From Escherichia phage PO103-1: a stretch of DNA of 53,040 nt. Numbering within the stretch: position 1 is the first letter of the stretch; each line of letters starts with the position of its first letter. Of the stretch, positions 36,344 through 49,602 are shown one piece after another. The notes below the pieces were generated by a model, which was given only the letters and a program-made list of their open reading frames with translations, ran no database searches and had not been told where the DNA came from. A program made the translations under genes and the position numbers. The stretch lies in the sequence record NC_079175.1. One strand, written 5' to 3'.

Positions 36344-36565
36344 TTATTTTAATGACGCCCGTAATGACGCATTTAGTACAGAACGCTTTTCATATTCGCG
36401 TTGATTGTACGTGTTTGTCAGTGCTTCCGCAGCCTCTATTGACAAGATTGCAAAACCGCCAAAGGCATTGCGAACTTCTCCAATATCCATGTACAGGACT
36501 TCACTGGTAATTTGGTTGGCTATTACGGCCTTATAAATCTCTTCGGCAATTTCAGCAGTTTTCAT
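36344..36565 (-). CDS. Hypothetical protein
   Basis: 73-aa ORF. Confidence 0.4.
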   Translation of the reverse strand: MKTAEIAEEIYKAVIANQITSEVLYMDIGEVRNAFGGFAILSIEAAEALTNTYNQREYEKRSVLNASLRASLK

Positions 36566-37500
36566 GTTTCTCTCCAGTTAAAATTTAAGTAAGTGCCCTG
36601 ACTATTACGAACATTACAAAACACTTATTAAATTTGATTCGAACCGCCCAAGTGAATCAGCCTTGTTTATGGGGACCATCGGGGAAAAGTATAAACCCGC
36701 TTAATGCTCGCATCATGTTTGAACATTAAGAACCCTCGACTTGCATATTTCATGTGTATAGGAACATAGTCTGGATTTTGAATCCAGCTAACTTCGGGAT
36801 GAGGAGTAACCCAAACGAAAGCCTGAACTTTCTTTCTGCACAACACAATCAGCGCAACTAAGCCGTATCGCTACGGTATGCCAGACGCTCTCTTGAGCCT
36901 TTTGAACAGAGGCATAACTGTTGGAGGTAGATTGGCGGATTCGGCGAACGCTAAGTTCACAATTACACAGTCGGCCTCGGATGCTTCATCCCTATCCCAT
37001 CGTGCAGGTTTAATTAACTCTACGAATCCATTGTTCGGGGGATTCACTGGAATCGAACCAGTCAGGTCGTTTCACCACGGTCAAGCCCGTACATACGAAA
37101 ATCCCATTGAATTTGGCGACCGATACGTTGGTCAGACGCTGTGGCCTTTACGCGGCCAACGTGCCATTAATGCTGGCAAGACAGAGCTAACGTTCTCAAG
37201 CACTTTGGCGAGGGTGTTCTCGGACACTGTTTTAGGAAGTGACCACCTGAACTTCTCGCGTTCATTACGGGACGTTCCAATCCTAGGAGGCAGCAATTTA
37301 TCATGTGTTATGCCCAGAGCACCAGGAATTACACCTACTATGCTACAAGTAGCTAGAGTCTCGTTATTTAAAGTCGCGCACTCCCTCGACTATGATATAC
37401 GTGTGTTTAAAGTCCCGTACCGGACTGCCAAATGAAATGCGATGGCGAGCATTTGTTTCACTGTACTTGTTTATAGATGCAACAGGCTCATCTTGTTCAC

Positions 37501-37710
37501 TCACTGTCGGGTAAGTTTCGAACACTTTTGTGCCCACGTTTCATTGTGGACTAAAATCTGTGTTTTGGTTTCGCGTGATAAGATTTTCACTTCTGCAACA
37601 TCCAAATAGATTGGTTGTGCAATTAAGCAATAATCACTTACGAACCCACTTTGAGAGCAACTCACTATCGACATTGCTATCAGAACTGCTAGACACTTCT
37701 TTCTGAACAT
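37501..37710 (-). CDS. Putative lipoprotein (o-spanin-like)
   Basis: Signal sequence with lipobox-like IVSC; start lies inside the 3' end of the upstream coiled-coil gene. Confidence 0.4.
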   Translation of the reverse strand: MFRKKCLAVLIAMSIVSCSQSGFVSDYCLIAQPIYLDVAEVKILSRETKTQILVHNETWAQKCSKLTRQ

Positions 37711-37870
37711 GCGATTTAATCTCGATAGATTCTTTTAATGAATCTAGTTGCTTCTCTGTGGCTTCCTGACGCTCCTCGGCTTTGCCTGAGCTTTTGCCTT
37801 TGAGGAACACTGCAATGATAATACCAAATGCAGTCAGGACGCCAAGAACTATTGATTTAAGCTGTTGCAT
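37634..37870 (-). CDS. Membrane-anchored coiled-coil protein (i-spanin-like)
   Basis: N-terminal transmembrane segment then charged helical region; strong RBS AAGGTGA; overlaps the lipoprotein gene. Confidence 0.45.
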   Translation of the reverse strand: MQQLKSIVLGVLTAFGIIIAVFLKGKSSGKAEERQEATEKQLDSLKESIEIKSHVQKEVSSSSDSNVDSELLSKWVRK

Positions 37871-37878
37871 AAATCACC

Positions 37879-38019
37879 TTAGATGGCGCACGCACCACTT
37901 GAGCAGTCGTTATCGCCCTCACCAGGAACGATTGCTTCTTCGTCCTGCTTCTTCTTAAGTTCTTCAATTGCTTCTTCGGCAGCACCGAAGTCTAAGTTAT
38001 CAAGTGCATCAAAATCCAT
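37879..38019 (-). CDS. Small acidic protein
   Basis: About 46 aa (MDFDALDNLDF...CSSGACAI); ATG with GGAG 7 nt upstream; the longer tracked ORF would overlap the tRNA-like element. Confidence 0.3.
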   Translation of the reverse strand: MDFDALDNLDFGAAEEAIEELKKKQDEEAIVPGEGDNDCSSGACAI

Positions 38020-38051
38020 AAGGACTCCAGTATTGCGAATTATTAAAGTGG

Positions 38052-38144
38052 GTGGACGAGGTTGGATTCGAACCAACGACACATCTGTCGAACAGATTGC
38101 TCTACCTGACTAAGCTCTGGAGCAGACCTTCTGAGCTACTCGTC
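38052..38144 (-). ncRNA. tRNA-like element (possible degenerate or unusual tRNA)
   Basis: Perfect 7-bp acceptor pairing GGACGAG/CTCGTCC, canonical UAGCUCAG and GGUAGAGC D-arm pieces, T-arm GUUGG-UUCGAAU-CCAAC; but about 24 extra nt in the D region and a 5-nt anticodon-position loop. Confidence 0.35.
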
Positions 38145-39017
38145 CAAAAATTGGGTGGGTTTTGGTAACGCAGGTTTTCCCGAACTGCGAGGCTTGTAGA
38201 ATCAGTGAGCCGCCTGTTTGGTATCTTCGGCCTGCCGTGGATTGATGGTCCCGACTCACTTCATCTCAGGTACGAGGCACTACTTTGCGAGTGCAAGCAG
38301 GTGTTGAACCCAAGTACCAACAGGCAACCTAACTTATCCCACCTTCATGGGCATCGTTGGTTTGAGCAGTTTATTTCCATGCTCAGGGCAACTCACTTTA
38401 GGGTGAATTAGGTTACGCAGTGCAGCTTCGAAGTCGCTGCCACAGGTTTGAGGTTCCTGTGTGGAGGGAAATCCAGAGGAGCACTTCCCCAAGGAGTTAC
38501 GTTTCAAATTGGCATAGCTTCTCACACCAAACCAATTGAAGACATTCCAGTGTGCTCGTCCGTCCTCTAGAAATATCCAACTGCATAATTAAGTTTGTAC
38601 TCTGTCACATCCCCACGCGCACTGAGGGACTTAAGCCTGCATTGCATCGCAGAATACAAATTAATTATTGCTCCGATTTATTAATCACATCTCGAAGCCA
38701 CAATGCGCCAAATTTGGTTACGTGGGATTGGAAGACCACGGAGAGAACTTAAATTTAATTAAGCTGCAACTCGCATTTCAGAATCATTTGCATTTATTTT
38801 AAATGAATAAAACAGCCGCATGATAACGAATGAAAACTACTTCAATGAACACTCTTGTCTGGGCCATGAGCTTGGGCATCGGCCTACCTCCCAACTCTAA
38901 TCACAAGAATGCTCATTGAAGCCCACTCACTCTGGAATGGGTTCAAGGCAGCACCGGAAAACTTCCAGTGCATGCCAGATCGATTTAGCTTAGTCTCTCA
39001 AGTTTGCCATCGGCAAC

Positions 39018-39356
39018 TTAGAATACCGGAGCTTCTTCAACAGCAGCTTCGGCAGCTTCGGCAACACTTGCGTCAGCAACTTTAGCTTCTTTCGGAGTAT
39101 CGAACTTAGTACGCTCAACTTCCGGCTCACCAGCTTCAACCCACGGCAGGTAGAATGCCAGGAACTGCTCGATGGTGTTCTTCTGCATGGAGCGAGAACG
39201 GTCGATAGCGCCAACGGTGTTCAGGTACGCTTCGGCAGCTTTCTCAATTTTAGCACCGTTTTCCAGTTTGAAGTCATGTGCATTACACTCTGCTTCGGTC
39301 AGGAACAGGGAACCATCGTTAGCTTCGTACTGAGTTACGGTTACAATCTTAGCCAT
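39018..39356 (-). CDS. Hypothetical early protein with acidic C-terminus ...EEAPVF
   Basis: 112-aa ORF, first gene after the GC-rich non-coding block. Confidence 0.5.
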   Translation of the reverse strand: MAKIVTVTQYEANDGSLFLTEAECNAHDFKLENGAKIEKAAEAYLNTVGAIDRSRSMQKNTIEQFLAFYLPWVEAGEPEVERTKFDTPKEAKVADASVAEAAEAAVEEAPVF

Positions 39357-39437
39357 TTGTATATACCTTATATTGAATAGTTTTGCACGCCACGGTGACG
39401 TGACTTAGATAAATTAAAGAGCCTTTCTCTTTCCACA

Positions 39438-39454
39438 TCCAACTAATGTTTCAG
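39438..39454 (-). promoter_or_regulatory. Early-region conserved motif copy (minus sense ctgaaACATTAGTTGGA)
   Basis: About 80 nt upstream of 39018..39356. Confidence 0.35.
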
Positions 39455-39478
39455 AACTGCTCTGATTCGACAAACGAC

Positions 39479-40153
39479 TCAATATCTATTGAATCGTTCT
39501 AGTGTTTTATTTACTAAATCCTTTGTCTCAGCGACAGTGAGTTCAGTGATGATTGATTCGTCATAACCCTCAATCTGGATTGCTACAAAACGCCCAACTC
39601 CAGTTACAGTGAGTCGGTTTGTTCTGTCACGAACAACTACACCAGCTTCTTGCGCGACTGCTCGCAACAATTTCCAGCGTAAAGTTCGATTTGGTACAGC
39701 AAAGCCCTTTGCCGAGAACAACTCTTTCATGAGTTCTCCAAGACAAACAGCTTCAATGTTTTGTCCTCTTCCAACTAATTCTTGCAACAGGCACAGTGTC
39801 AACATTTCTAAATTGTTGAAGTGTCCAGCGCGCTCCAAATTAAAGAACTCTGGAGGAACAGTTGAACGAGATTTAACAGCTTGCTTGTATGCACGTTCTT
39901 CTTCCTGTGCAGCAAGCATCAGCATCTCTGGCTTAATGTATTTCATAGCAGAGAAGCCAGCGCGTGTGGCTTTAATTATGCGACAAGCCTCTTTCATCTT
40001 GTAGCGTTGCCACTCACCGCGCTTCGATTCTGGATTAAAATGGACCCACATAATGATAACATCTTCCTTGGCAAGATAGACGGCATCATTATCATTGAGC
40101 CATTGCTTACACGTTGATAGTGCAATCTCTTTGTCATCATCATGATAAGACAT
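39479..40153 (-). CDS. Hypothetical protein
   Basis: Likely start MSYHDDDK at 40153 abutting the upstream gene stop. Confidence 0.45.
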   Translation of the reverse strand: MSYHDDDKEIALSTCKQWLNDNDAVYLAKEDVIIMWVHFNPESKRGEWQRYKMKEACRIIKATRAGFSAMKYIKPEMLMLAAQEEERAYKQAVKSRSTVPPEFFNLERAGHFNNLEMLTLCLLQELVGRGQNIEAVCLGELMKELFSAKGFAVPNRTLRWKLLRAVAQEAGVVVRDRTNRLTVTGVGRFVAIQIEGYDESIITELTVAETKDLVNKTLERFNRY

Positions 40154-40154
40154 T

Positions 40155-40481
40155 TTAGTGGCCTTGTAGGATACGTTTGTTCGCAGTTTCTGCGTCGATT
40201 CCCAAATCAACTAATGTCACCAAGCACTGCGAAATCCGCTCTTGCGCAGCTTTCTCCAGAATTTGGTATTTTTCGTTGTCAATGCCTAACACATTCTTGG
40301 CATGAATGAGTGTAGCCATTAGACCATGACCCAAAGCAACAGCTTGCATTGCCCGGAGTTCAAAGTTAATTGTGATGCCAGCGAGTTCGTGCTCTTTCTG
40401 GATAATCTCAATCAACTCTTCTTTAGATTTGTCCTGTAAGTTCAAAATGGAACTCCGTAAATCGGTTGGTTTGTTGTCCAA
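40155..40481 (-). CDS. Hypothetical protein
   Basis: 108-aa ORF. Confidence 0.45.
   Translation of the reverse strand: MDNKPTDLRSSILNLQDKSKEELIEIIQKEHELAGITINFELRAMQAVALGHGLMATLIHAKNVLGIDNEKYQILEKAAQERISQCLVTLVDLGIDAETANKRILQGH
40207..40220 (-). promoter_or_regulatory. Early-region conserved motif copy (variant)
   Basis: gtgACATTAGTTGAt about 50 nt upstream of the 39479..40153 start. Confidence 0.3.
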
Positions 40482-40762
40482 TTGCGAGTTGCGATTTGCA
40501 TGGACTTGTTTGGGCCGTAGTAGAAATATTTCTTAACTTCGGCAAGGGTGTAGTTGGCACTGCTTTCAAGCAACTCCTTAAAGGTGTGCTTCCAGAATCC
40601 ATCTTTCTCCGACAGACTTACGTGGAAAGAATTAGTGCCGTTATAATACCAACGCCCACCAACGAGAACGAAGTGGATTGTTTCTTCCTCTCCTTCCCCA
40701 CTTGAAGGGAACATTAGTACATTTCTCAACGTCAAAACTTTAGCAGAATGCTTGCGAACCAT
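40442..40762 (-). CDS. Hypothetical protein
   Basis: 106-aa ORF. Confidence 0.45.
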   Translation of the reverse strand: MVRKHSAKVLTLRNVLMFPSSGEGEEETIHFVLVGGRWYYNGTNSFHVSLSEKDGFWKHTFKELLESSANYTLAEVKKYFYYGPNKSMQIATRNWTTNQPIYGVPF

Positions 40763-41403
40763 AGGAACTCTCCAATTTTCGATTCAGTGTTTGTGACTTC
40801 TCTTCTCATCTTTTGGCCCAGGAACAGGCCACAGGGTAGCGCAGGAAGGCCGAAAATCGGGCCGCTGCCTACCGTTTGTGTCAATTCTGGATAACTGCAT
40901 TGGCGAAGGGTTACTCCCGTTAGGGTGCGATACGCTAATCACATGAGTGTTGTCGCCTTGCGGCTCAGGCGTGTCACAGAGGCTTTGCAACCCTTCCCAA
41001 TACATTCACCCAATCCACCTGCTTTGGCATAGCTGGTGGCGCGGTTTTGTGCGGATTATGCCACTCTAAGCCCTGTTTGTCCGACTTCCTCAGAGCACCA
41101 GCAGCTTGTGGCACAAACCTATTTTCGAATGACTAACATAAGCATGAGGCATAACCCTCTAATTATTCAGCCCTAACAGCTTGCTTATTTAGTTCCAATT
41201 CATCCCAATACATCGCCTATAACAAGTGAATAGCTTTTCTGCGAAGAAGTATTCCGGCCCTATGGCCTATGTTAAAAGATAAATGTAATATGATGGAAAC
41301 ATTCCATCGAAAAGAACTTTGTAGAACGAATCGAACGTTCTCACACGCCTTGGTACCAGACGGACTACCTAGTTACAAAGTTCTTATCTGATGTTGTTTC
41401 AAT

Positions 41404-41420
41404 TCCAACTAATGTCGAAT
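41404..41420 (-). promoter_or_regulatory. Early-region conserved motif copy
   Basis: attcgACATTAGTTGGA at the edge of the 40763-41408 non-coding block. Confidence 0.3.
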
Positions 41421-41585
41421 GTCTTTCTTGCAAACAGGACAAGTGATAAATCTATATGCGAAATATCCTCGGTCATTCTTACCTGTGTATATCTTTAAGT
41501 CCGAGAATTCATAAGACACAACAGAAGCACATAACCGACATTGGCGTGTGAAGGTTACTGTATCTTTTTCCAGAACTTTAATCAT
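41409..41585 (-). CDS. Small zinc-ribbon protein
   Basis: About 59 aa from ATG with GGAG 6 nt upstream; CRLC...CPVC pairs; the motif copy overlaps its RBS. Confidence 0.45.
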   Translation of the reverse strand: MIKVLEKDTVTFTRQCRLCASVVSYEFSDLKIYTGKNDRGYFAYRFITCPVCKKDIRH

Positions 41586-41590
41586 TTCAT

Positions 41591-41608
41591 CTCCAACTAA
41601 TGTTTCAG
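41591..41608 (-). promoter_or_regulatory. Early-region conserved motif copy
   Basis: ctgaaACATTAGTTGGAG; its GGAG doubles as the RBS of the zinc-ribbon gene. Confidence 0.35.
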
Positions 41609-41731
41609 AATTATTCCAATATTCCAAACAAAAAGAATAATAAGAATAAATTAAATAAATGAAGAAAGTGCTTGACACCCATTTGGCGATAAGTGTATAA
41701 TGCCTTTCTTCCCTAAGTGGTCAGAATCAAA

Positions 41732-41748
41732 TCCCACTAATGTTTCAG
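41732..41748 (-). promoter_or_regulatory. Early-region conserved motif copy
   Basis: ctgaaACATTAGTGGGA in an intergenic stretch. Confidence 0.35.
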
Positions 41749-41812
41749 ACTAAAGCCGAAGGCCAATGCGAGCACAAAACCCGCTTGGCACTTCGAAGAA
41801 ACCCGCCTGGAA

Positions 41813-42052
41813 CTATAGTGTTTTCCAGTCTGAGTCAAATAGCTCTTTCGGTCGTGTGTAGATAGTAGAAGAATCAATACTCAAGAAAGTATGGTCCCCG
41901 TACTTCTTCACCTCTTGGTAAGCAAACCCATCCACCCAACTTCCGCAGTGAGTTTTAATCTTTGTAGGTCCAAGAATACGATAGAAAGTGTTTCGAGGCT
42001 GGTGGTGAACAATCAATCCAGCCTCAAGTTCAGCGATATTTAAATCACGCAT
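41813..42052 (-). CDS. Hypothetical protein
   Basis: 79-aa ORF. Confidence 0.4.
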   Translation of the reverse strand: MRDLNIAELEAGLIVHHQPRNTFYRILGPTKIKTHCGSWVDGFAYQEVKKYGDHTFLSIDSSTIYTRPKELFDSDWKTL

Positions 42053-42662
42053 TTAAGAATAGTATTCCCTCAGAGAAAATGTAGTCACTTCCATAATCTC
42101 TGGTGATTGCATCCCAATCAATATATGGTGCAAGTCGGCCTGGAATATCCAGTGCCTCACTTTGCTTCAAATATTCTGTAATTGAGTCGCAACGTGTGAT
42201 GAACATGTCGTTCAAATCATCCACAGTGAAAATATCAATCTCACCACTGCGGAATGCTGCAAGAATTACATCCAAATCGGTGTCAACAAGCAGCTCATTG
42301 AACTTATCATATTTACGAATGCTGAATAGCCCATTGGCAAAGCAAACTTCGGTAACATCTTCTTCGTTTGATTCAATTACGTCATATGTGCCGTCTTCTG
42401 GATATTCAATGCCGTATTCTTCATGCAAATACTCCCGCATGTCGAAATCATAGTGACGCCAAGACAGGCCATCAACCCACGCATCTACAAATTCAGAATT
42501 AGTTTCGCCTGTGTAGAAACGAACCAATAAGGTTTCATCTCTACGCCAGGACTTAAGCTGTTCTACTGCTTGAGCAATGTTATCGTTTTGCATTGAGTTT
42601 CTCCCACATACCTTGAAGTTCCGCATTAAGGATTTTGAGCTGTTCAATTCGCTCTTTTCCAC
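42045..42662 (-). CDS. Acidic protein, ArdA-like anti-restriction candidate
   Basis: Strongly acidic; C-terminal PYIDWDAITRDYGSDYIFSEG resembles the ArdA C-terminus as I recall it; true start may be an internal Met. Confidence 0.4.
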   Translation of the reverse strand: MEKSELNSSKSLMRNFKVCGRNSMQNDNIAQAVEQLKSWRRDETLLVRFYTGETNSEFVDAWVDGLSWRHYDFDMREYLHEEYGIEYPEDGTYDVIESNEEDVTEVCFANGLFSIRKYDKFNELLVDTDLDVILAAFRSGEIDIFTVDDLNDMFITRCDSITEYLKQSEALDIPGRLAPYIDWDAITRDYGSDYIFSEGILFLNA

Positions 42663-42870
42663 TCTTCACTAACATGTCTAAGATGGCGGTTTTCTCTTTG
42701 TATGATACTAGATAGCAGCACCTGCCAACCTCAATTTCGTGCCTCAGACTACGAGAATCTTGCACATGATTTGACAAATGCTGGTGGAGTTCTGCCTCTG
42801 CACGAGTCGTACGCTCTTGCATTCGCTCTAGTTCTTTCGGTATTTCCTGATATTCCATCGGATGCTCCAT
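42580..42870 (-). CDS. Hypothetical protein
   Basis: 96-aa ORF. Confidence 0.35.
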   Translation of the reverse strand: MEHPMEYQEIPKELERMQERTTRAEAELHQHLSNHVQDSRSLRHEIEVGRCCYLVSYKEKTAILDMLVKSGKERIEQLKILNAELQGMWEKLNAKR

Positions 42871-42878
42871 TGATGAAG

Positions 42879-43274
42879 TTATGCTGGAAGTTCGAAGTGT
42901 GGTGCATCAAGGAACTTGGCCCATTTCACTGGCTTAGTGAAGGTCCGTTCCCATGTTCCGCCCCAACGAATGACAACTCCAAGCTCTTCTGCGGCTTTGA
43001 ACATGTGTTCAGCTACAATTTGGAATCGTTCGAGGTCATTCCAGTCAATTGGGTACGGCGCAATGTCCAAAGCGTTGCCTGACATGTGTCGGCTAACTGA
43101 AACTTTGGTTGCACCCTGTTTTAACAGTTCTTGTTGACGTTCATAAGAGCGTAAACCTTCCAAAACAGCTACATCAAAAGGCATCGTTTCACATGCACGT
43201 TTGAAAACTGCAACTAATGAAGGATTTACTCCCTTAAGTCGGTCTAAAGAACGTTGACCGAGCTTAACATTCAT
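42879..43274 (-). CDS. Peptidase M15 family cell-wall endopeptidase (T5-type endolysin-like)
   Basis: SRHMSGNALDIAPY, IDWNDLERF and APHFEL closely parallel the T5 L-alanyl-D-glutamate peptidase motifs as I recall them. Confidence 0.75.
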   Translation of the reverse strand: MNVKLGQRSLDRLKGVNPSLVAVFKRACETMPFDVAVLEGLRSYERQQELLKQGATKVSVSRHMSGNALDIAPYPIDWNDLERFQIVAEHMFKAAEELGVVIRWGGTWERTFTKPVKWAKFLDAPHFELPA

Positions 43275-43549
43275 TACTTATCCTTTAGCGCATCGCTTAA
43301 AGTGTTGTTTAACAGTGTGTTGAGGTTATCAATCTCGTCAAATGCTTTCTGAGCCTTGGCAACTTCATCAACAAGTAATGCTCGAAGGACTCCATGCTCA
43401 ATAAGCACCCATCCATCAATACAGTCGATGAAAACCTTAACTTTATCGGCCGGAGCATTTAAATCAAAGGTAGATAAGTCAGATTTGGCATCATCTAGCT
43501 TACCTTTTGCCTTACTTAGTTCAACTGGAACTTGGTCTATTGAAATCAT
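43274..43549 (-). CDS. Hypothetical protein
   Basis: 91-aa ORF, translationally coupled to the M15 peptidase gene. Confidence 0.4.
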   Translation of the reverse strand: MISIDQVPVELSKAKGKLDDAKSDLSTFDLNAPADKVKVFIDCIDGWVLIEHGVLRALLVDEVAKAQKAFDEIDNLNTLLNNTLSDALKDK

Positions 43550-43779
43550 TGAAAGCTATTCCCACTAGGGTGAATGGTTAATTTGAAAGACACTAATTCT
43601 TTATTGATTGAGGTTGTTCCAAGAACTGTTGCCTCAAACAACATAGATTTAGCAGTTTCCTTCCCTACACGTTCCAAGTATTTTACAACTCGGTCGTGAA
43701 TTACTGCCCAATGGCGATATTCGCAATTGGATTCCAGCAGGTATTGAACCCCATCAATAATAAATTCTGTTGAAGTCAT
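43546..43779 (-). CDS. Hypothetical protein
   Basis: 77-aa ORF. Confidence 0.4.
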   Translation of the reverse strand: MTSTEFIIDGVQYLLESNCEYRHWAVIHDRVVKYLERVGKETAKSMLFEATVLGTTSINKELVSFKLTIHPSGNSFQ

Positions 43780-44135
43780 TTCTTCTCCGTACAGCTGGTG
43801 GATAAGACAGGATAGTTTGCTTTGAGGAAATCCCCATCACGGAAAATCTGTAGCACAAGTTTATCTTCATGATTTATAAACAGTGCAGCAAACCTGCTAT
43901 CTTTAATGTTGTAAAATAAAACTGTTGCAGGATTGGGTTCATCACTTGGAACCTCTATCCAAACACCAGCTTCAGGAATTATTGACGCAATCAGAGGTTG
44001 GCTGTCTCCGATGTTATCAACTACAAGAGTATATGCTCCACATTTGAAGTTCTTTGTTGACGCTTTAGACTCAAAGCTGAAGAACGCCAAAACAATTAAT
44101 GCTAAAGTATAAATAATAATGTACTTAAGTTTCAC
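43776..44135 (-). CDS. Secreted/periplasmic small protein
   Basis: N-terminal signal-peptide-like segment (IIIYTLALIVLAFFSFESKA). Confidence 0.45.
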   Translation of the reverse strand: MKLKYIIIYTLALIVLAFFSFESKASTKNFKCGAYTLVVDNIGDSQPLIASIIPEAGVWIEVPSDEPNPATVLFYNIKDSRFAALFINHEDKLVLQIFRDGDFLKANYPVLSTSCTEKK

Positions 44136-44289
44136 AATTAAAACCTCTGAACGATTTTAGATACAGTGTGTAACTTACCTTTATAAAGAATTGCACACCC
44201 AACCATAATAAATTGTGTATTAAGTGTTGAAATTGGCTCGTCAACACCTTCAAGATAAATATCCCACATAAATCCTCCAATAATTAATC

Positions 44290-44315
44290 GAGGCCACTCG
44301 AAGTGGAATGGCCTC
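44290..44315 (-). terminator. Hairpin terminator candidate
   Basis: About 10-bp stem (GAGGCCATTC/GAGTGGCCTC) 6 nt after the stop of 44322..45224, followed by U-rich GAUUAAUUAUU. Confidence 0.45.
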
Positions 44316-44321
44316 TGTTAA

Positions 44322-45224
44322 TTACAGCTTCTTGATAAGCTCTGCGGATTTGTTTGCGGCAGCTTTCATTTCATCGCGCGCGGCTTTAGAGATTGATGCC
44401 TTGTCCACGCGAATATTACAGTTACCAACTGCAATCTTGCCATCTTCTGTTGGCGGAAGCTGAGTTAACTCCAACATTTGCTCCAGCTTTTGCAGAAGAA
44501 TGCGTTGTGCTTCGATTGCATTTTGAATATTTAATGTTTCCATTACTGCTCTTACCTTTCTTGAGAATGTTCCAGTTAATGCCAGCCGTACTTGTAAACC
44601 TTTAATGTTTCCATAGTCTACATTCACTTTATTGGCTGGCGAATGTGGATGTTTGTACACGTTTGTTACAGTTGCCCAATTTCCATTTACCCAAATAACA
44701 TCGCCAACTTCTACATCTTTTCCGAGAACATCTTCTTCATCGGATATTTCCTGCTTCTTGAACTCCTCCACAGGAAGGAATATTGGATTTATTTGGTTTG
44801 GGAACTCAATTGTTGGTGAGTTTGCCATTGGGCCTGGGTTAACAACGTAGACAACCCTACTCTTCACAAAGTCGAAGTACCCTTTCGAGTGATGCAGTCG
44901 AACATCTGAACCATAATCTTCTACGCGAGTAATGTAGAAGAAGTTTACACCATAGCTAAGTGTTTCACCTGCTACAACCATCCCAGCTTTGACTGGAGTA
45001 ACCTTTGGCGCATTTTCATGCTTATCGACAATTTCCACAATCTTGTATGCGTCCAAGTTGAAATATCCTCCATTATATTGCAGTTGTACAATGTTGGCAA
45101 AATGGAGTATCCTTTCTATTAGGTACTCTTTGCAATCGTGCAGGTATATATCACCTTTCGATACCAAATTTACCGGAATTTTGATAGCCTTAGTTCCCAC
45201 GATATTCCTCACGCATTGCTGCAC
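44322..45224 (-). CDS. Hypothetical protein
   Basis: 300-aa ORF followed by a strong hairpin. Confidence 0.45.
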   Translation of the reverse strand: MQQCVRNIVGTKAIKIPVNLVSKGDIYLHDCKEYLIERILHFANIVQLQYNGGYFNLDAYKIVEIVDKHENAPKVTPVKAGMVVAGETLSYGVNFFYITRVEDYGSDVRLHHSKGYFDFVKSRVVYVVNPGPMANSPTIEFPNQINPIFLPVEEFKKQEISDEEDVLGKDVEVGDVIWVNGNWATVTNVYKHPHSPANKVNVDYGNIKGLQVRLALTGTFSRKVRAVMETLNIQNAIEAQRILLQKLEQMLELTQLPPTEDGKIAVGNCNIRVDKASISKAARDEMKAAANKSAELIKKL

Positions 45225-45321
45225 AGTGTTTGCAAACCCAAATGGTTACATAATCGTTTTCGTGTGAAATTTCCCAATTATGTAGCCCTATAAAACATAA
45301 GATTTTCATAGGGCACCTCCA

Positions 45322-45696
45322 TTAGAACGGAATGTCGTCGTCGAAGTCTTTCGGCTCGTTCGGGTTATAATTGCTCTGCTGCTGTTGTTGAGTAGGAGCT
45401 TGCTGTTGCGCAGAAGGTTGCTGGCGTTGCTGTTGCTGTTGAGCGGCAGCTTGAGGTTGAGCTTTGGCTTTAGCTTTCTCTTCACGCTTACGCATCATTT
45501 CATCAACCTGTTCTTGGGTCATGATGGTTAATGCAAGTGAGGTAAACTCATTACCATTTGCTTGCTTATTCCAGCCAGATACCCAATACCAGATTCCGTC
45601 AACGTTAATACGTCCACGAATGTCGGGATGTTTTGGGTCTTTCTTGAAGCCGTTAGGACCGATAATGCCAGTGTTTACATCTGAATATTGTGCCAT
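45322..45696 (-). CDS. Small protein carrying an SSB-like C-terminal tail
   Basis: Gln-rich linker then NEPKDFDDDIPF, nearly identical to the E. coli SSB C-terminal tip as I recall it; N-terminal domain too short for a full OB fold. Confidence 0.55.
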   Translation of the reverse strand: MAQYSDVNTGIIGPNGFKKDPKHPDIRGRINVDGIWYWVSGWNKQANGNEFTSLALTIMTQEQVDEMMRKREEKAKAKAQPQAAAQQQQQRQQPSAQQQAPTQQQQQSNYNPNEPKDFDDDIPF

Positions 45697-45771
45697 GATT
45701 AAGATTCTCTTAAGTTAATTACAGTTTAAGTTTCAGTGACATTGCTAACCACGGAATAGCTTTGTCCCTCA

Positions 45772-45794
45772 TATCCAACTAGTGCTAGATTAAT
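45772..45794 (-). promoter_or_regulatory. Early-region motif copy, extended GATTAATC subfamily
   Basis: gattaatctagcACTAGTTGGAt about 75 nt upstream of 45322..45696. Confidence 0.35.
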
Positions 45795-45825
45795 CAGGAA
45801 CACTCAATGAATGCTCCTTGTTAAT

Positions 45826-46137
45826 TCAACGTTGTTTCTTGGCCCACTCTATTGCAGCCATTATCGTATCGCCGTGGCAGCGAGCTGGGGCACACCAACA
45901 AACTAAATCTTTGCCATCCAATGCTAGCAAATCATCTATTGTTACTTCACCAGATTTAATTTGTTTCCACAAATGCTTGCGATACTCTTCGCACACATAG
46001 TCTCTTTGGCTTTCATTAAACATTTTAAAAGGATTGTGGAATTTCTTGTTTCCAGCAATACCCTTCATATCTCGACCTATATATACTGCGTTGTTGTGAA
46101 CACCTTTAACTTTCGAATAGTTCAGAACTCTTGCCAT
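45826..46137 (-). CDS. DUF4326-like protein
   Basis: VYIGR...NPF and LVCWCAPARCHGD motifs; start MARVLNY at 46137 with GGAG upstream. Confidence 0.5.
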   Translation of the reverse strand: MARVLNYSKVKGVHNNAVYIGRDMKGIAGNKKFHNPFKMFNESQRDYVCEEYRKHLWKQIKSGEVTIDDLLALDGKDLVCWCAPARCHGDTIMAAIEWAKKQR

Positions 46138-46162
46138 CTTTATTCTCCAATTATTATTCACA

Positions 46163-46184
46163 ATCAACTAATGTTAGATTAATC
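46163..46184 (-). promoter_or_regulatory. Early-region motif copy, extended GATTAATC subfamily
   Basis: gattaatctaACATTAGTTGAt about 30 nt upstream of the DUF4326-like gene. Confidence 0.35.
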
Positions 46185-46216
46185 ATGGACACCTACAGGA
46201 GATGCCCATTGTTAAT

Positions 46217-46450
46217 TTAACGAGTCAGTTTGTCAAAGTACCACATATCTTTGGTAATCCACTCACCGCTTGGTGATTTAATGTAGCAACTACCATTGAT
46301 TGTGTATTTGAACTCTGCTTGCTGCAATTCTGCAAAGGTTTTGCATTCATATTTGTATACAAAATATGTAGGCAGTCCAATGACAACCAGAACAGACAGC
46401 AACATTAGTACGAAAGGTACTACAATATCTTTCATAACCCAATTCATCAT
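46217..46450 (-). CDS. Small membrane protein
   Basis: One strongly hydrophobic segment (VVPFVLMLLSVLVVIGL). Confidence 0.4.
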   Translation of the reverse strand: MMNWVMKDIVVPFVLMLLSVLVVIGLPTYFVYKYECKTFAELQQAEFKYTINGSCYIKSPSGEWITKDMWYFDKLTR

Positions 46451-46549
46451 ATCCCCGCTTGTAGAAGGAGTAGGTTTGCAAAACCCAGAATAACTGTGAG
46501 TATAACGACACTGATAGTGAGTGTCAGTATTATATATTTGATACTGTCC

Positions 46550-46837
46550 TCACATTACCTTTGATACAGGAATTGGGTCGATTGTGGTTTCAGGTTTATA
46601 CCAACTTACTTCGCCAGAATCTTTAACAAGCTCCCACAAATTGGAGAATGTACGATAAGATAAATTGCGGTTATCATCATTAACGACAAAACCCAAAGGA
46701 GATTGAATATACGCACCGAGTGTACCGTTGTTGCGAGGAACCCCGTCACCACGACCTGCGACGATTTTGTACTTCTTACCGTAGGTAAAACTGTAATTTG
46801 TTTTACCAACATAACGTAAGATTGAATTCTTGTTCAT
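46550..46837 (-). CDS. Hypothetical protein
   Basis: 95-aa ORF. Confidence 0.4.
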   Translation of the reverse strand: MNKNSILRYVGKTNYSFTYGKKYKIVAGRGDGVPRNNGTLGAYIQSPLGFVVNDDNRNLSYRTFSNLWELVKDSGEVSWYKPETTIDPIPVSKVM

Positions 46838-47121
46838 TTCTTAGCTTTCTCCCATTTGGATAAACCACCTTCAAGATTGAAGATACGATTGCAACCAGAT
46901 TCGTCTTTAATGACAAACTGAGTTCCGGTTAGCTGGATTGGCTCAAGTGAACCAAATATCTTCTTTGGTTTTGACAAGCTGGTGGCAAGAACCACATAAA
47001 CTTTGCTTGGGCAAATGTCGAAAGCAAAGTCACGAGTGTAGACTAAGTCACCAACTTTCAAATATGCTGGTAACAAGCGACCTGTGGCTGGGTCACGTTG
47101 TAAACGAGTACGTTGTTTCAT
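46834..47121 (-). CDS. Hypothetical protein
   Basis: 95-aa ORF. Confidence 0.4.
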   Translation of the reverse strand: MKQRTRLQRDPATGRLLPAYLKVGDLVYTRDFAFDICPSKVYVVLATSLSKPKKIFGSLEPIQLTGTQFVIKDESGCNRIFNLEGGLSKWEKAKK

Positions 47122-47184
47122 AAATGCTCCAAGTTAATTAATAATATTCAGCAACCACTCTCATTACAAAAGTGGTTGAGGAAA

Positions 47185-47415
47185 TTATTTGACTTCTTCC
47201 CAGGACCAGACACTACCTTCCAAGGGGACGCTCTCTCCCGCAGACCAATATGAGTCGCCATAGGAAGTTTTGCGGTCACTGTCTTCTGTGATGTTTATGC
47301 GAGTCTGCACTCCATCTTCGTCTTTAACAGTTACAAGCTCTCCTTCAATAATATCACCAACTTGCGGAGAATATTCAGATGAAGAGGATGATTCTACACA
47401 TTTAAACTTTGTCAT
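47185..47415 (-). CDS. Hypothetical small acidic protein (paralog A)
   Basis: Starts MTKFKCVES; paralogous to the next gene. Confidence 0.4.
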   Translation of the reverse strand: MTKFKCVESSSSSEYSPQVGDIIEGELVTVKDEDGVQTRINITEDSDRKTSYGDSYWSAGESVPLEGSVWSWEEVK

Positions 47416-47639
47416 TGCAATAACCCTTGTTCACAAATATCTGCAAATTCTGCTTCATGGTCACGTTGCCATGTCCAGAATGCACCATTCATAGGCACTA
47501 CAGCGCCTTTACGAAATGCTGGAGAAACATTCTCGGCCGATTTGGTCACTTTAAATTCCAAAGGCGAGATAGCTTCACCCTCAACGATGAAGCCAACTGG
47601 AACATAATCTTTGGTTGAAGCAACACATTTAAATTTCAT
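47412..47639 (-). CDS. Hypothetical small protein (paralog B)
   Basis: Likely start MKFKCVAS at 47639 with AGGTG upstream. Confidence 0.4.
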   Translation of the reverse strand: MKFKCVASTKDYVPVGFIVEGEAISPLEFKVTKSAENVSPAFRKGAVVPMNGAFWTWQRDHEAEFADICEQGLLQ

Positions 47640-47943
47640 GATATAAAACACCTATCTCAGATTTGAGGTTAAATTCACGAAAGAAATCCATTGTTACAAA
47701 ACGGATTTTACCTTCATCATCAACTACGTTACAGGAGATTTCTGAGTGGACCATACGGCCCAACTTCAAAGCAACTTCTGACAGGTTTGCTTCACCAGTG
47801 CCAGAAATCACTTCATAGATTTTATATGGTGTAAAGCCGCTTAAAGAGTTATTACGGCTTGGGACAATCATCATGCCTGTTCTGGTAGCCATAATAACTC
47901 CGGCATTAAAAGTACATGAATGCGCCAACAACAAGCAGCACAA
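47629..47943 (-). CDS. Hypothetical protein
   Basis: 104-aa ORF; true start may be an internal Met. Confidence 0.35.
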   Translation of the reverse strand: MCCLLLAHSCTFNAGVIMATRTGMMIVPSRNNSLSGFTPYKIYEVISGTGEANLSEVALKLGRMVHSEISCNVVDDEGKIRFVTMDFFREFNLKSEIGVLYHEI

Positions 47944-47989
47944 GTGGGAACATCATAATACAGAATACTAGTTTCTTTACAATATCCAT

Positions 47990-48205
47990 TTATTTCACCA
48001 GGAAGTAGAGAACAATAAGGAATCCAACACATGCAATAATGGTTGGCATATAATTATCAATTTTACGATATTGACGTTCGACTGGCTTCTTGCCTTTAAT
48101 GGTGTCCATCAATTCTTGATGATTAATTTGCTGCATGAATGTGTTGAATTGCTGGTCGTTCATTATTTGCCCCTTAGCTTCACATTCTTCCCAACAAGCA
48201 CACAA
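47990..48205 (-). CDS. Hypothetical C-terminally anchored membrane protein
   Basis: 71 aa with C-terminal hydrophobic segment (IIACVGFLIVLYFLV). Confidence 0.35.
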   Translation of the reverse strand: MCACWEECEAKGQIMNDQQFNTFMQQINHQELMDTIKGKKPVERQYRKIDNYMPTIIACVGFLIVLYFLVK

Positions 48206-48208
48206 CCT

Positions 48209-48439
48209 TTAAGCCATCGTGTTTTTTAGATTTGCTGGAAACCAGGATTTAAATTCTTCGGAGTAAACCTTTGTGAAATGGAACTCAGGATTCCCAAATA
48301 CTATGTTAACGATTTTAGCCACCTTACGTGCTGGCATGCGAGGATTTGCAGCTCTTGCTAATTTCTTAGCTTTACGCTTTGAAGCACCATACATAGCCAT
48401 ATATGTAACTGTTTTGGTCATATATTTGAGCTTCTTCAT
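48209..48439 (-). CDS. Hypothetical basic protein
   Basis: 76 aa, Lys/Arg-rich. Confidence 0.4.
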   Translation of the reverse strand: MKKLKYMTKTVTYMAMYGASKRKAKKLARAANPRMPARKVAKIVNIVFGNPEFHFTKVYSEEFKSWFPANLKNTMA

Positions 48440-48606
48440 TTTCCACTCCGAGCAGCATCGAGCTGTTCTTCAAGAAGATTAATGTGTTGGCCCAAGAATA
48501 GGGCCATTTCACGAGAAATTACAGCAGATTTGATTTCTGGATTTTCTGCAATTTGCTTAACACCTTGCAGGAAACTCCAAAGACTCACTTCTTCGTTTTC
48601 GAACAT
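48436..48606 (-). CDS. Hypothetical small protein
   Basis: Hand-found 56-codon ORF (MFENEEVSLWSF...) filling the gap; its stop overlaps the next ATG (ATGA). Confidence 0.3.
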   Translation of the reverse strand: MFENEEVSLWSFLQGVKQIAENPEIKSAVISREMALFLGQHINLLEEQLDAARSGK

Positions 48607-48608
48607 AA

Positions 48609-48845
48609 CTAGCTCTTTATGAAATTGTTAATAAGAGTGTCCATCACTTCGTCTGTGAGAACATCGTCGTTAAATTGCTTGTTGGTGATTTCTATACCAA
48701 ATTCTTTGGCACGATTAACTAATTCACTGGTGGGAACATCAATCCATCCATCGTAGTTAACAACAAGCCTCTCCTTAAGAAATTCGACTTTCTCTTCATA
48801 AGAGGCCAACTCGATTAAGTCGGCCTTCAATTTAAACTGTGTCAT
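48609..48845 (-). CDS. Hypothetical protein
   Basis: 78-aa ORF. Confidence 0.4.
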   Translation of the reverse strand: MTQFKLKADLIELASYEEKVEFLKERLVVNYDGWIDVPTSELVNRAKEFGIEITNKQFNDDVLTDEVMDTLINNFIKS

Positions 48846-49030
48846 TTAGCCTCCAGAATTTGGCTCAATGAACTGAACACGATTTCCTCATGTTCGTCAG
48901 GTGTACATGCGTTGATGTATTCAAAGTCGTAACCAATAAACTTCTCCGCCCACTGTTGCAAACGAAGTAAAGAATTGAAGTACAATCTTTGCTCCACACC
49001 ATTTAACTTAAAGTAGACGATGAAGTCCAT
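48842..49030 (-). CDS. Hypothetical protein
   Basis: 62-aa ORF. Confidence 0.4.
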   Translation of the reverse strand: MDFIVYFKLNGVEQRLYFNSLLRLQQWAEKFIGYDFEYINACTPDEHEEIVFSSLSQILEAK

Positions 49031-49045
49031 GTTTACTCCTATGTA

Positions 49046-49264
49046 TTAAACTTCAATTGGCTCTTGAACTAAATCAGAGGCTGAGATTTCTTTAAACTCC
49101 TCCTCGGTAAAAGTTCTCTCATTGTCATTCAGCAGAACACCAATATTAGAATCACCAACGAATACGGCATTTACATTAACATCATCTTCCAAAACTTTTT
49201 GCAGGTGTTCTCCACCACGCGTAAAGAAGATTGCACCATCTTCCAAATCTTTAAAACGAATCAT
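49046..49264 (-). CDS. Hypothetical acidic protein
   Basis: 72-aa ORF, first gene after the non-coding repeat region. Confidence 0.4.
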   Translation of the reverse strand: MIRFKDLEDGAIFFTRGGEHLQKVLEDDVNVNAVFVGDSNIGVLLNDNERTFTEEEFKEISASDLVQEPIEV

Positions 49265-49553
49265 TTTATTCTCCTAAGTTAAAAGAACTCCCTACAGAAC
49301 GATTGTGGAGGTCTTGTCTTACCTCAATCCACCTTAAAGTTGTAGGGAGTTATATAGTATTCCTGTGTGTGCCGCCATCAGGGACTTCCTAGTCTGGTGG
49401 GCGCGTTGCAATCCAGCAATATACCACACGTTTTTCACAGGCTATATATGTGACACACAAAGTGTCGAAAAACTACAATGATTAGCTTGGAGACATAATC
49501 TCTCTAAAATCTGTCACACAATTTCAGCAGAATTTACAGAGATTTGGTCTTAT

Positions 49554-49574
49554 TCACATGCAACTAATGATAAA
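49554..49574 (-). promoter_or_regulatory. Early-region conserved motif copy
   Basis: tCATTAGTTGCATGTG at the lower edge of the non-coding repeat region. Confidence 0.3.
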
Positions 49575-49586
49575 TGAACATGCTTA

Positions 49587-49602
49587 ATTGCAACTAATTC
49601 AT
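49587..49602 (-). promoter_or_regulatory. Early-region conserved motif copy (degenerate)
   Basis: gAATTAGTTGCAat, tandem with the preceding copy. Confidence 0.25.

Follow-up and report, generated by a model that had tools for sequence, protein, structure and literature searches.

The stretch of DNA analysed here (the window, 53,040 nt; NC_079175.1) is the complete genome of Escherichia phage PO103-1, a coliphage of the genus Carltongylesvirus in the family Chaseviridae, and contains no tRNA genes. Two genes for cell-wall hydrolases lie about 41 kb apart in it, and the features that concern us are the following:

1490..2044, minus strand: SleB-fold (Hydrolase_2) enzyme, predicted to be exported, 184 aa (Pfam, AF2 and Foldseek, hydrophobic N-terminus)
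2062..2403, minus strand: lambda-S-family class I holin, 113 aa (Pfam PF05106, PHROG 126, BLASTP)
37501..37710, minus strand: o-spanin (Rz1-like), 69 aa, lipobox I-V-S-C (PHROG 1275 'Rz-like spanin', E = 9.8e-18)
37634..37870, minus strand: i-spanin (Rz-like), 78 aa, with a charged helical region after its N-terminal TMD (PHROG 1026 'Rz-like spanin', E = 4.3e-20)
42879..43274, minus strand: signal-less M15C (Peptidase_M15_4) endopeptidase of L-Ala-D-Glu type, 131 aa (Pfam, PHROG and PDB matches)
43274..43549, minus strand: 91-aa ORF neighbouring the M15 gene (PHROG 31001, unknown function)

An initial annotation of this DNA had proposed two differing cell-wall hydrolases in separate genome regions: a T5-family M15 peptidase without a signal among the small early-region genes, and a SleB/CwlJ-like hydrolase with an N-terminal export signal and a holin alongside. 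All of this is borne out, the presence of two hydrolases by Pfam, PHROG and PDB matches with E-values far beyond chance. The catalytic residues were also checked for divergence, and both active sites are intact (H63, D70, D123 and H126 in M15; E62 in the SleB-like enzyme).

Hydrolases, holin and spanins

The M15 product matches Pfam Peptidase_M15_4 (PF13539; E = 5.4e-9, 36.9 bits against a cut-off of 25), PHROG 465 'endolysin' (E = 5.3e-54) and solved L-alanyl-D-glutamate endopeptidases (PDB 8q2g, 5.9e-24; the T5 enzyme 2mxz, 1.7e-18), and the sequence match places it above the threshold of the M15C endolysin family (EndoT5, EndoRB43/RB49). The M15C site comprises a Zn-binding His-x6-Asp ... 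His and a catalytic Asp (SxHxxGxAxD ... DxxH), plus an active-site Trp. In an alignment that includes T5-type Lys the four residues named above are invariant, and W108 is aligned to the Trp of 'GADW' in T5-type Lys, the equivalent of EndoT5 Trp114, which is essential (PMC10487532). Judged by its sequence the enzyme looks active, and a specificity of the L-Ala-D-Glu type is predicted. A hydropathy scan gave neither a hydrophobic N-terminus nor a TM segment. The gene is adjoined by an anti-restriction gene, and no holin lies beside it in the window.

The translational coupling of M15 to the upstream 91-aa gene, also proposed initially, stands insofar as the M15 ATG and the stop codon of the 91-aa ORF have one base in common (a TAATG overlap within ...AAGGATAAGTAATGAAT...). 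It does not stand as a specific feature of M15, since overlaps of 1-11 nt are found at about 21 of the 87 gene junctions of this tightly packed genome and the coupling is therefore generic. No homologue of the 91-aa ORF is present upstream of M15 in Mangalitsa, whose M15 is 97% identical, or in 4HA13; in PM1 a weak homologue precedes the gene for a CHAP enzyme. A role as dedicated partner, inhibitor or chaperone of M15 was rejected because the ORF is not conserved along with it. Three genes upstream of M15, in the same string of overlapping genes, a signal-anchored 119-aa protein of unknown function is encoded.

The SleB-like enzyme matches Pfam Hydrolase_2 (PF07486; E = 1.1e-15, 58.5 bits against a cut-off of 27). 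Residues E62, R64, N80 and R81 are invariant in 35 homologues, and E62 (in Y-E-A-R-G-E) and R81 are invariant in a cross-family alignment as well. E62 is aligned to the first Glu of 'GESRGE' in B. cereus SleB, and the spacing of 19 residues between E62 and R81 equals that of the groove pair E203/R222 of B. subtilis SleB. The AF2 model (pLDDT 84.5, pTM 0.80) retrieved the SleB catalytic domains 4F55 and 4FET as top Foldseek hits (probability 1.00, TM 0.62-0.64, target-normalised; others ≤0.13). The protein is probably a lytic transglycosylase, and conserved residues and modelled fold together make it look active. It scores 29.4 bits against the NCBIfam spore_SleB equivalog, under the cut-off of 236.5, and its N-terminus consists of a signal peptide and a conserved linker of about 25 residues without a PG-binding domain. 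The features that define a true spore-cortex SleB (an N-terminal PG-binding domain, a YpeB partner and muramic-delta-lactam specificity) do not describe it; it has only the catalytic fold in common with SleB and is not a SleB orthologue.

Whether this N-terminus is a cleavable signal peptide or a SAR domain was judged by inspection. A SAR domain is a TMD of about 18-22 residues that is weakly hydrophobic, has a high content of Gly, Ala and Ser and can leave the membrane. The N-termini of the 35 homologues have a hydrophobic core of 9-12 residues, followed by polar residues and a site of AxA type (small-x-small), and a core of this length could not span the membrane as a SAR domain does. The window protein has the n-h-c architecture of a signal peptide, which is conserved, with a putative AxA-type cleavage before V; the most divergent homologues read MKKFMCLLFLLFSFQSHA before the putative cleavage and N after it. 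On this basis the N-terminus looks like a cleavable signal peptide rather than a SAR domain. Two Cys pairs, C54/C93 (invariant) and C155/C161 (in at least 90% of the 35 homologues), the first of which has no match in Bacillus SleB, fit a location in the oxidising periplasm. Annotators have been split, with Mangalitsa carrying 'SAR endolysin' and Myduc 'not SAR', and the 'SAR endolysin' label that has spread in GenBank for Chaseviridae is probably wrong.

The SleB-like gene lies 17 nt downstream of the holin gene. The holin matches Phage_holin_3_1 (PF05106; E = 2.1e-8, 34.9 bits against a cut-off of 23.8) and PHROG 126 'holin/anti-holin', and BLASTP against lambda S aligned residues 22-94, spanning TMD1-3 (E = 9e-8). 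Its score against TIGR01594 (E = 1e-7, 32 bits) is under the cut-off of 55, which makes it a distant member of the lambda S family and not an equivalog. The orthologue in Myduc, 56% identical, is annotated 'Class I holin - three TMDs'; a crude hydropathy scan of the window protein resolved TMD2 and TMD3 only. Its homology to lambda S, its three TMDs and the charge of its C-terminal tail (...WFKKAR) place it with the lambda S class I holins.

The i-spanin and o-spanin genes share 77 nt, read in two frames, at the 3' end of the former, and the i-spanin is orthologous to annotated spanins of 4HA13, Myduc and PM1. The pair at 37501..37870 is thus organised as a two-component (Rz/Rz1) spanin, a gene pair left unannotated in some records of Chaseviridae. 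The spanin genes lie in the early/middle region, outside the late cassette. An early-region position is accordingly no argument against a role in lysis, since these spanins and the T5-like M15 endolysin are likewise early/middle.

Expression signals were no guide to timing. In the early half (36000..53040) scans for sigma-70 promoters and for terminators gave counts no higher than in shuffled sequence, and in 1..8000 terminator-like sites were about twice as frequent as the shuffle mean, with none between the tail genes and the holin. A candidate promoter motif, TGAAACATTAGTTGGATGTGA, was noted. A literature search found no transcriptome for any Chaseviridae phage.

The hydrolase pair across Chaseviridae

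The two-hydrolase arrangement is not new, being already annotated and published for relatives. The SKA49 paper describes two cell wall hydrolases in two genome modules with a distant spanin; the ST32 annotation names both hydrolases 'endolysin', and that of Mangalitsa lists an 'L-alanyl-D-glutamate peptidase', a 'holin class I' and a 'SAR endolysin'. What the present analysis adds is that the pair is family-wide, that the early-slot enzymes are interchangeable, that the spanins lie outside the late cassette, and that the exported enzyme carries what looks like a cleavable signal peptide in place of a SAR domain.

In Carltongylesvirus (SKA49, ST32, phiEcoM-GJ1, Mangalitsa, Ecp_YSF) the arrangement is identical to that of the window. 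The M15 enzymes of Mangalitsa and Ecp_YSF are 97-99% identical to the window M15, and the SleB-like enzymes of Mangalitsa and EcoM1 are 99-100% identical to the window protein. The isolates show no material difference, and it is the small genes ahead of M15 that vary between them.

Beyond the genus, a SleB-like enzyme with export signal and a signal-less stem-peptide hydrolase were found in every Chaseviridae genome examined. The two genes are separated in Cleopatravirinae and adjacent in a single cassette in all five Nefertitivirinae (pAh6-C, BUCT696, VPs20, Spp001 and MSO-5), where they follow small TM proteins at the end of the late block, just upstream of an RNAP gene whose product is only about 34% identical to the window RNAP. 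The Nefertitivirinae cassette thus holds the same pair as the window, a signal-less M15-type enzyme and an exported Hydrolase_2 enzyme, but with the genes side by side; its peptidase resembles M15_4 in Pahsextavirus and M15_3 in the phages of Vibrio and Shewanella. A lambda-S-type holin was not detected in these cassettes, the small TM proteins that precede the enzymes being of unknown family.

In Cleopatravirinae the early slot always encodes a signal-less stem-peptide hydrolase, the family of which varies. M15_4 occupies the slot in the window, Mangalitsa, 4HA13 and Erwinia phages; Myduc has M15_3 there (E = 2e-30), and PM1 has CHAP. Such non-orthologous displacement is typical of endolysin genes, and experiments have proven that single-domain proteins of the M15_3 and CHAP families serve as endolysins in phages of Gram-negative hosts (Proteus LysPM1/LysPM2; these phages are not Chaseviridae and serve only as proof of function). 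The SleB-like enzyme, by comparison, is a single orthologous family throughout Chaseviridae and is more uniformly conserved than the peptidase. Conservation of the pair shows that both enzymes are useful, not that both act in lysis, and the role of the peptidase partner could vary between genera because the partner is not orthologous.

Proposed roles of the two hydrolases in lysis

The initial annotation had asked which of the two is the true endolysin. The family-wide pair and its adjacent cassette in Nefertitivirinae suggest that this is not an either/or question. The reading we favour, with a probability of roughly 0.55, is a dispersed lysis system in which the two hydrolases act jointly as endolysins. 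The SleB-fold enzyme would be made from the end of the late block, exported by Sec through its cleavable signal peptide, and held waiting in the periplasm. M15, having no export signal, would build up harmlessly in the cytoplasm as the T5 endolysin does. Triggering of the holin would collapse the membrane potential and so unleash the Sec-exported endolysin, as in known systems, and would also open large holes through which the M15 peptidase could leave. Glycan strands and stem peptides would then be cut simultaneously, and the Rz/Rz1-type spanin pair would disrupt the outer membrane. Three-TMD lambda-S-like holins are those that let a soluble endolysin out of the cytoplasm, a step that an enzyme relying on Sec export alone could do without. 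Three points count against this two-endolysin reading: in the window no holin gene neighbours M15; one exported endolysin, if efficient, could in principle suffice for a phage; and a freely secreted transglycosylase would somehow have to be kept harmless until the holin triggers.

It is unlikely, in our estimate, that the holin and the SleB-like enzyme form a complete and sufficient lysis cassette to which M15 is an early or middle accessory and not a lysis protein, whether remodelling or trimming peptidoglycan or its recycling products, blocking wall growth, or regulating the T7-like RNA polymerase as T7 lysozyme does. M15 lies among small early-region genes, next to an anti-restriction gene and away from any holin, and the order RNAP ... 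SSB ... hydrolase ... primase/helicase, DNAP, exonuclease is similar to that of the T7 class II region. The T7 lysozyme gene occupies a comparable place, between the SSB and primase/helicase genes. T7 lysozyme belongs to another family (Amidase_2), however, and the occurrence of three hydrolase families in the early slot is hard to square with specific protein-protein regulation. The lysis module published for this group is named solely 'holin-SAR endolysin', but in Nefertitivirinae the M15-type gene is part of the lysis cassette and the immediate neighbour of the SleB-like gene. The fully intact M15 active site also speaks against an accessory role, as does T5, whose bona fide M15 endolysin is the product of an early-region gene. 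Cleavage of peptidoglycan precursors in the cytoplasm by M15 is less likely given the cassette position in Nefertitivirinae, and keeps some plausibility because every early-slot enzyme targets the stem peptide.

The converse, that M15 is the principal endolysin, T5-like and released by the lambda-S-type holin, with the SleB-like protein an auxiliary periplasmic enzyme (pre-weakening the wall or making space for spanins) insufficient for lysis, strikes us as quite unlikely. In T5-like phages M15, encoded next to the holin, has been established by experiment as the endolysin, and the SleB-like protein encoded elsewhere has no assigned role; in the window, however, it is the SleB-like gene and not M15 that directly follows the holin. 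The holin is of the large-hole type, as a cytoplasmic enzyme needs. Bacillus SleB enzymes target spore-specific muramic-delta-lactam peptidoglycan, so that efficient action of the SleB-like enzyme on E. coli murein is only putative. Against M15 as the principal endolysin, the SleB-like enzyme has been kept as one family across Chaseviridae and the peptidase replaced, and a survey finds transglycosylase endolysins to be prevalent in the family.

That one enzyme is instead virion-associated (a hydrolase used in entry) or directed against competitors, as the initial annotation had wondered, or serves in superinfection exclusion, is very improbable. [quoted passage not shown] Both enzymes, however, are small and single-domain and have no domain for attachment to tail or baseplate, and the M15 gene is not part of the structural block. 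LC-MS/MS of CsCl-purified 4HA13 virions listed 15 proteins at a coverage of 50% or more, and the two enzymes are not on that list, although the non-structural SSB was detected. M15, without an export signal, could not reach the periplasm to act on incoming phages.

A stronger version of the two-endolysin reading, which we offer tentatively and consider unlikely, is an obligate two-enzyme module in which neither enzyme alone gives normal lysis. Such a module would date back to the ancestor of Chaseviridae and would be found again in T5-like phages and Moazamivirus SE131, with a peptidase (M15_4, M15_3 or CHAP) that can be swapped and relocated and an exported partner that stays fixed. Should both enzymes prove necessary, Chaseviridae and T5-like phages would offer tractable Gram-negative systems in which to study why some phages carry two endolysins that reach the wall by two routes (Sec export and holin release) and cut different bonds, with a bearing on lysis timing and on the design of enzyme cocktails against Gram-negative bacteria.

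Comparison with known systems

GenBank and the PP101 paper use the label 'SAR endolysin' for relatives of the SleB-like enzyme. In SAR endolysin/pinholin systems (phage 21 R21/S21, P1 Lyz) the endolysin is exported by Sec before the holin triggers, as proposed here; in the window, however, the catalytic domain has the SleB fold and is not a T4-type lysozyme, and the holin is lambda-S-like and not a two-TMD pinholin. Two further candidates were set aside: the endolysin/LRP of Pantoea phage PA1 is not relevant, its lysin being a Felix-O1-type lysozyme, and the 'two endolysins' of Shewanella phage SXP01 are those of an unrelated phage of about 250 kb. Cytological profiling of phage Tiny showed early nucleoid condensation, more compact cells and lysis only late, with no sign of early wall damage.

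The same two families are present in the T5-like phages (Tequintavirus), which encode Lys (EndoT5, M15C) and a separate SleB-like 'cell wall hydrolase'. As in the window, M15 has no signal and the SleB-like protein has an N-terminal signal peptide. The proven M15 endolysin, the holin and the SleB-like protein are all encoded in the early region of these phages, and the holin adjoins M15, whereas in the window it adjoins the SleB-like gene. Identity between the window M15 and T5-type Lys is only 35%, and two short insertions of the latter are absent from the window protein, which matches PDB 8q2g and 23ri more closely than EndoT5. Which of the two enzymes is used by T5-like phages is a question already raised in print.

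A functional precedent comes from Kayvirus, the group of Staphylococcus phage K, in which a Sec-exported transglycosylase-type enzyme (Tgl) occurs beside a holin-dependent peptidase/amidase endolysin (LysK). The host is Gram-positive, Tgl is IsaA/SceD-like and not of SleB fold, and the exported enzyme is early and the cytoplasmic one late, the reverse of the gene positions in the window. The tgl and lysK genes are under separate transcriptional control. Tgl acts as an additional endolysin with LysK and lyses after membrane depolarisation, and this precedent counts among the support for reading the PO103-1 hydrolases as two endolysins.

The two hydrolases and their genomic setting

Megablast from both ends of the finding identified the window as a full-length Escherichia myovirus genome of 53,040 bp, with Ecp_YSF, BSBP01 and Shigella phage 2KOFFS as its nearest records (91-95% identity); its taxonomy, Chaseviridae, genus Carltongylesvirus, was read from the Mangalitsa record. 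Every gene is on the minus strand, in the order RNA polymerase (RNAP), small early genes, replication, structural genes, tail fibres, holin, hydrolase and nrdB. The lysis-related features are as follows.

42879..43274, minus strand: M15 peptidase, 131 aa; Peptidase_M15_4, PHROG 465
1490..2044, minus strand: SleB-like enzyme, 184 aa; Pfam Hydrolase_2 (1e-15)
2062..2403, minus strand: holin, 113 aa; lambda-S holin family, PF05106 above cut-off
37634..37870, minus strand: i-spanin, Rz-type; PHROG 1026 (pair confirmed by PHROGs 1026 and 1275)
37501..37710, minus strand: o-spanin, Rz1-type, lipobox IVSC; other frame, overlapping the i-spanin

The initial annotation had described the first of these as a signal-less, T5-family L-alanyl-D-glutamate peptidase, and this identification holds; all the features it named lie at the positions it gave. 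The protein matches Peptidase_M15_4 above the curated Pfam cut-off, PHROG 465 'endolysin' (5e-54) and L-alanyl-D-glutamate endopeptidases of solved structure, among them the T5 enzyme 2MXZ (1.7e-18), and a search for a hydrophobic N-terminus found none. In an alignment with T5-type Lys, the M15-family endolysin of T5-like phages, the metal-site and catalytic positions (H63, D70, D123 and H126) do not vary, and W108 is the counterpart of a Trp whose essential role in EndoT5 has been demonstrated. Judged by these residues, the peptidase is likely to be active.

Its proposed translational coupling to an upstream 91-aa gene stood only in part. The ATG of the M15 gene does overlap the 91-aa ORF's stop codon by one base (TAATG), but such overlaps are common: in a rough map of the window's genes, about 21 of the 87 junctions overlap by 1-11 nt, among them holin/tail-fibre-assembly and SleB-like/nrdB. 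We regard the 91-aa gene as a mere neighbour rather than a partner, since no homologue lies upstream of the M15 gene of Mangalitsa (97% identical to that of the window) or 4HA13. In PM1 an unannotated, weakly similar ORF (33% identity, E=5e-5) immediately precedes an unrelated CHAP gene. The overlapping gene string (119 aa, 77 aa, 91 aa, M15) begins at 43776..44135 (minus strand) with a 119-aa protein of PHROG 35432 that carries a signal or anchor at its N-terminus (MKLKYIIIYTLALIVLAFFSFESKA/S), and is preceded by a hairpin with a 10-bp stem at 44315..44290. This protein could be a periplasmic factor; nothing found ties it in function to M15.

The SleB-like hydrolase was likewise found beside a holin-like ORF, starting 17 nt downstream of it. 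Sixty-three homologues were gathered, each of ~183-187 aa and many from contigs of ~52-54 kb, and 35 were aligned. Residues E62 (in Y-E-A-R-G-E), R64, N80, R81, Q98, Q101, W104, H153, F154 and H175 are invariant; E62 is the counterpart of the first Glu of the matching B. cereus SleB motif, and the E62-R81 spacing equals that of the groove residues E203 and R222 in B. subtilis SleB. An AlphaFold2 model built from the 35-sequence alignment was confident (pLDDT 84.5, pTM 0.80), and its only meaningful PDB matches were catalytic domains of SleB lytic transglycosylases, 4F55 and 4FET (probability 1.00). Identity as a true spore SleB was rejected, the protein scoring far under the NCBIfam equivalog cut-off and having no PG-binding domain. 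Divergence of catalytic residues in one of the two hydrolases had been raised at the outset; the M15 site and E62/R81 are both intact, and neither enzyme appears decayed from its sequence.

GenBank records and the PP101 paper label the SleB-like enzyme a 'SAR endolysin' (signal-arrest-release), and the Myduc annotation has 'No TMD - endolysin (not SAR)'. Across the 35 homologues the N-terminus comprises a hydrophobic core of just 9-12 residues followed by polar residues and lastly a small-x-small site, with the putative cut before V in the window protein and at MKKFMCLLFLLFSFQSHA/N in the most divergent members. By inspection this is the predicted architecture of a cleavable Sec signal peptide; a SAR membrane span would need a longer core. 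C54 and C93 are fully conserved and C155/C161 almost so, with Leu and Ser in place of C54 and C93 in Bacillus SleB; the conserved cysteines would fit disulfide bonds in the periplasm.

Between signal peptide and catalytic domain, residues 22-54 form a strongly conserved stretch (FAS-x-SYLNG-x-L-x-LS-x-x-Q; A33, Y37, L38, G40 and Q48 invariant in the 35 homologues), predicted to be helical over residues 22-39. T5-like and Nefertitivirinae Hydrolase_2 versions lack it, and it might be regulatory. The SleB-like gene adjoins nrdB (390..1490, minus strand; ribonucleotide reductase beta subunit) through a one-base TAATG overlap at 1490, so that the 'late' block ends in a nucleotide-metabolism gene, beyond the lysis genes; the pAh6-C genome has nrdB in a different place.

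Holin, spanins and candidate regulatory sequences

On sequence criteria the holin is a distant member of the lambda-S family. BLASTP with lambda S gave E=9e-8 over residues 22-94, the C-terminal tail is charged, and the Myduc orthologue (56% identical) is annotated 'Class I holin - three TMDs'; the TIGR01594 score is under cut-off. The spanin pair (37501..37870, minus strand) lies in the early/middle region, distant from the holin cassette, and is orthologous to the annotated spanins of 4HA13, Myduc and PM1. In Mangalitsa (MN045229, 14819..15188) genes 037 and 038 are 90-97% identical to it and annotated only as 'hypothetical protein'. With holin, hydrolases and spanins thus scattered over the genome, the early-region position of M15 is no argument against a role in lysis.

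A ~20-nt motif with the consensus TG(A/T)AACATTAGTTGGA(T/A)GTGA occurs in about 12 gene-strand copies, many between ORFs and nearly all in the early/middle half. The core ACATTAGTTG starts, in plus coordinates on the minus strand, at 52763, 50421, 49570, 46174, 45785, 41743, 41603, 41415, 40217, 39449, 31764 and 12175; the 20-mer with up to 3 mismatches gave 5 matches against 0.01 expected, and the RNAP gene itself has one copy just ahead of it. The motif is a candidate phage promoter; according to the 2022 ICTV profile, promoters of Chaseviridae 'have not yet been identified', and eight were proposed in the PP101 paper. A near-palindromic 18-mer, CAATATTGTCACAATATT, occurs at 49762..49779, 50010..50027 and 283..300 (twice exact, once at 83% identity). 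The ~1.2-kb gene-poor stretch that lies downstream of RNAP has other short repeats in common with the sequence downstream of nrdB (184..242 versus 49701..49723). These may be associated with an operator, an origin or terminal repeats.

The enzyme pair across Chaseviridae

An RNA polymerase search returned 107 Chaseviridae records in two subfamilies. In all five Nefertitivirinae sampled (pAh6-C, BUCT696, VPs20, Spp001 and MSO-5; RNAP ~34% identical to that of the window) the gene for a signal-less M15-type peptidase adjoins that for a Hydrolase_2 enzyme bearing an export signal at its N-terminus; the two stand where the late block ends, downstream of small membrane proteins and directly upstream of the RNAP gene. 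Cleopatravirinae keep the holin-adjacent Hydrolase_2 gene and carry a signal-less stem-peptide hydrolase in an early-region slot between the SSB and anti-restriction genes, its family varying among genera.

Carltongylesvirus, Sabourvirus and Erwinia phages: Peptidase_M15_4
Myduc, 5297..5662: Peptidase_M15_3 (2e-30)
PM1 (NC_023865; loci 8147..8422 and 8426..8902, taking in the CHAP gene and the ORF upstream of it), between SSB and anti-restriction genes: CHAP domain

Tblastn with the window M15 as query did not detect the Myduc enzyme. The PM1 CHAP protein carries the mistaken annotation 'baseplate hub subunit and tail lysozyme'. In phages of Gram-negative hosts, endolysin function has been proven by experiment for single-domain M15_3 and CHAP proteins. 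The picture suggested by these sequences is of one conserved, exported, glycan-cutting enzyme and one replaceable, cytoplasmic, peptide-cutting enzyme, as expected of a two-enzyme lysis system and difficult to reconcile with a one-off moron or with a protein of specialised regulatory function.

In the Nefertitivirinae cassettes (pAh6-C 18872..19440, Spp001 3599..4515, BUCT696 1202..1794) no lambda-S-type holin could be recognised. The enzymes are instead preceded by two conserved membrane proteins of unknown family, one of ~133 aa (N-terminal TMD and coiled coil) and one of 55-63 aa; both are candidates for a new-family holin or spanin.

A proposed dispersed lysis system and its known parallels

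We consider a dispersed lysis system in which both hydrolases act together the most likely reading (probability about 0.55). On the expression timing, export and cleavage that we infer, Sec would export the SleB-fold enzyme in late infection and M15 would build up in the cytoplasm. The holin, being of lambda-S type, would then trigger, depolarisation unleashing the exported enzyme and holes of presumably large size freeing M15. Each enzyme would contribute according to its predicted bond specificity, in a joint cutting of stem peptides and glycan strands, and the spanins encoded in the genome would fuse or disrupt the outer membrane. The sequences themselves show both active sites intact, the SleB fold, the family of the holin, the spanins and a conserved pair; timing, export with cleavage, hole size, bond specificity and a contribution from both enzymes are inferred.

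That the holin and SleB-like pair suffices, with M15 serving another role, seems unlikely. It is quite doubtful that, on the T5 model, M15 would be the principal endolysin and the SleB-like enzyme an auxiliary. A virion or anti-competitor role is highly improbable, because both enzymes are missing from the proteins listed for purified 4HA13 virions, where even contaminating SSB was detected, and M15 alone could not reach the periplasm.

The literature yielded neither functional nor transcriptomic data on the lysis genes of any Chaseviridae phage. Both hydrolases are already annotated in GenBank records of Carltongylesvirus, and the T5-like equivalent of the arrangement is likewise in print. 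The present analysis adds the family-wide view of the pair, whose genes adjoin in Nefertitivirinae, the replacement by non-orthologous enzymes in the early region, the reading of the SleB-like N-terminus as a signal peptide instead of SAR, and the location of unannotated spanins.

T5-like phages appear in the tblastn lists of both enzymes. PP952070.1, 'Staphylococcus phage Pel53', labelled a Staphylococcus hyicus phage, encodes a SleB-like protein 96.7% and an RNAP 93% identical to those of the window, and is probably a host mislabel or contaminant. In the T5-like Salmonella phage HMD-7 the holin gene overlaps M15 Lys, and a Hydrolase_2 protein of 149 aa, bearing a classical signal peptide (MKAALLLVAALTFSFSSQA/S), is encoded 20 kb away; both enzymes are also present in Salmonella phage SE131 (Moazamivirus). 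The lysozyme, holin and SleB genes of T5-like phages have all been reported in the early region, and the choice of main endolysin has been raised there as a published question. A further parallel is Tgl of the Staphylococcus Kayvirus phages, a Sec-exported transglycosylase that is experimentally an additional endolysin and acts with LysK once the membrane is depolarised.
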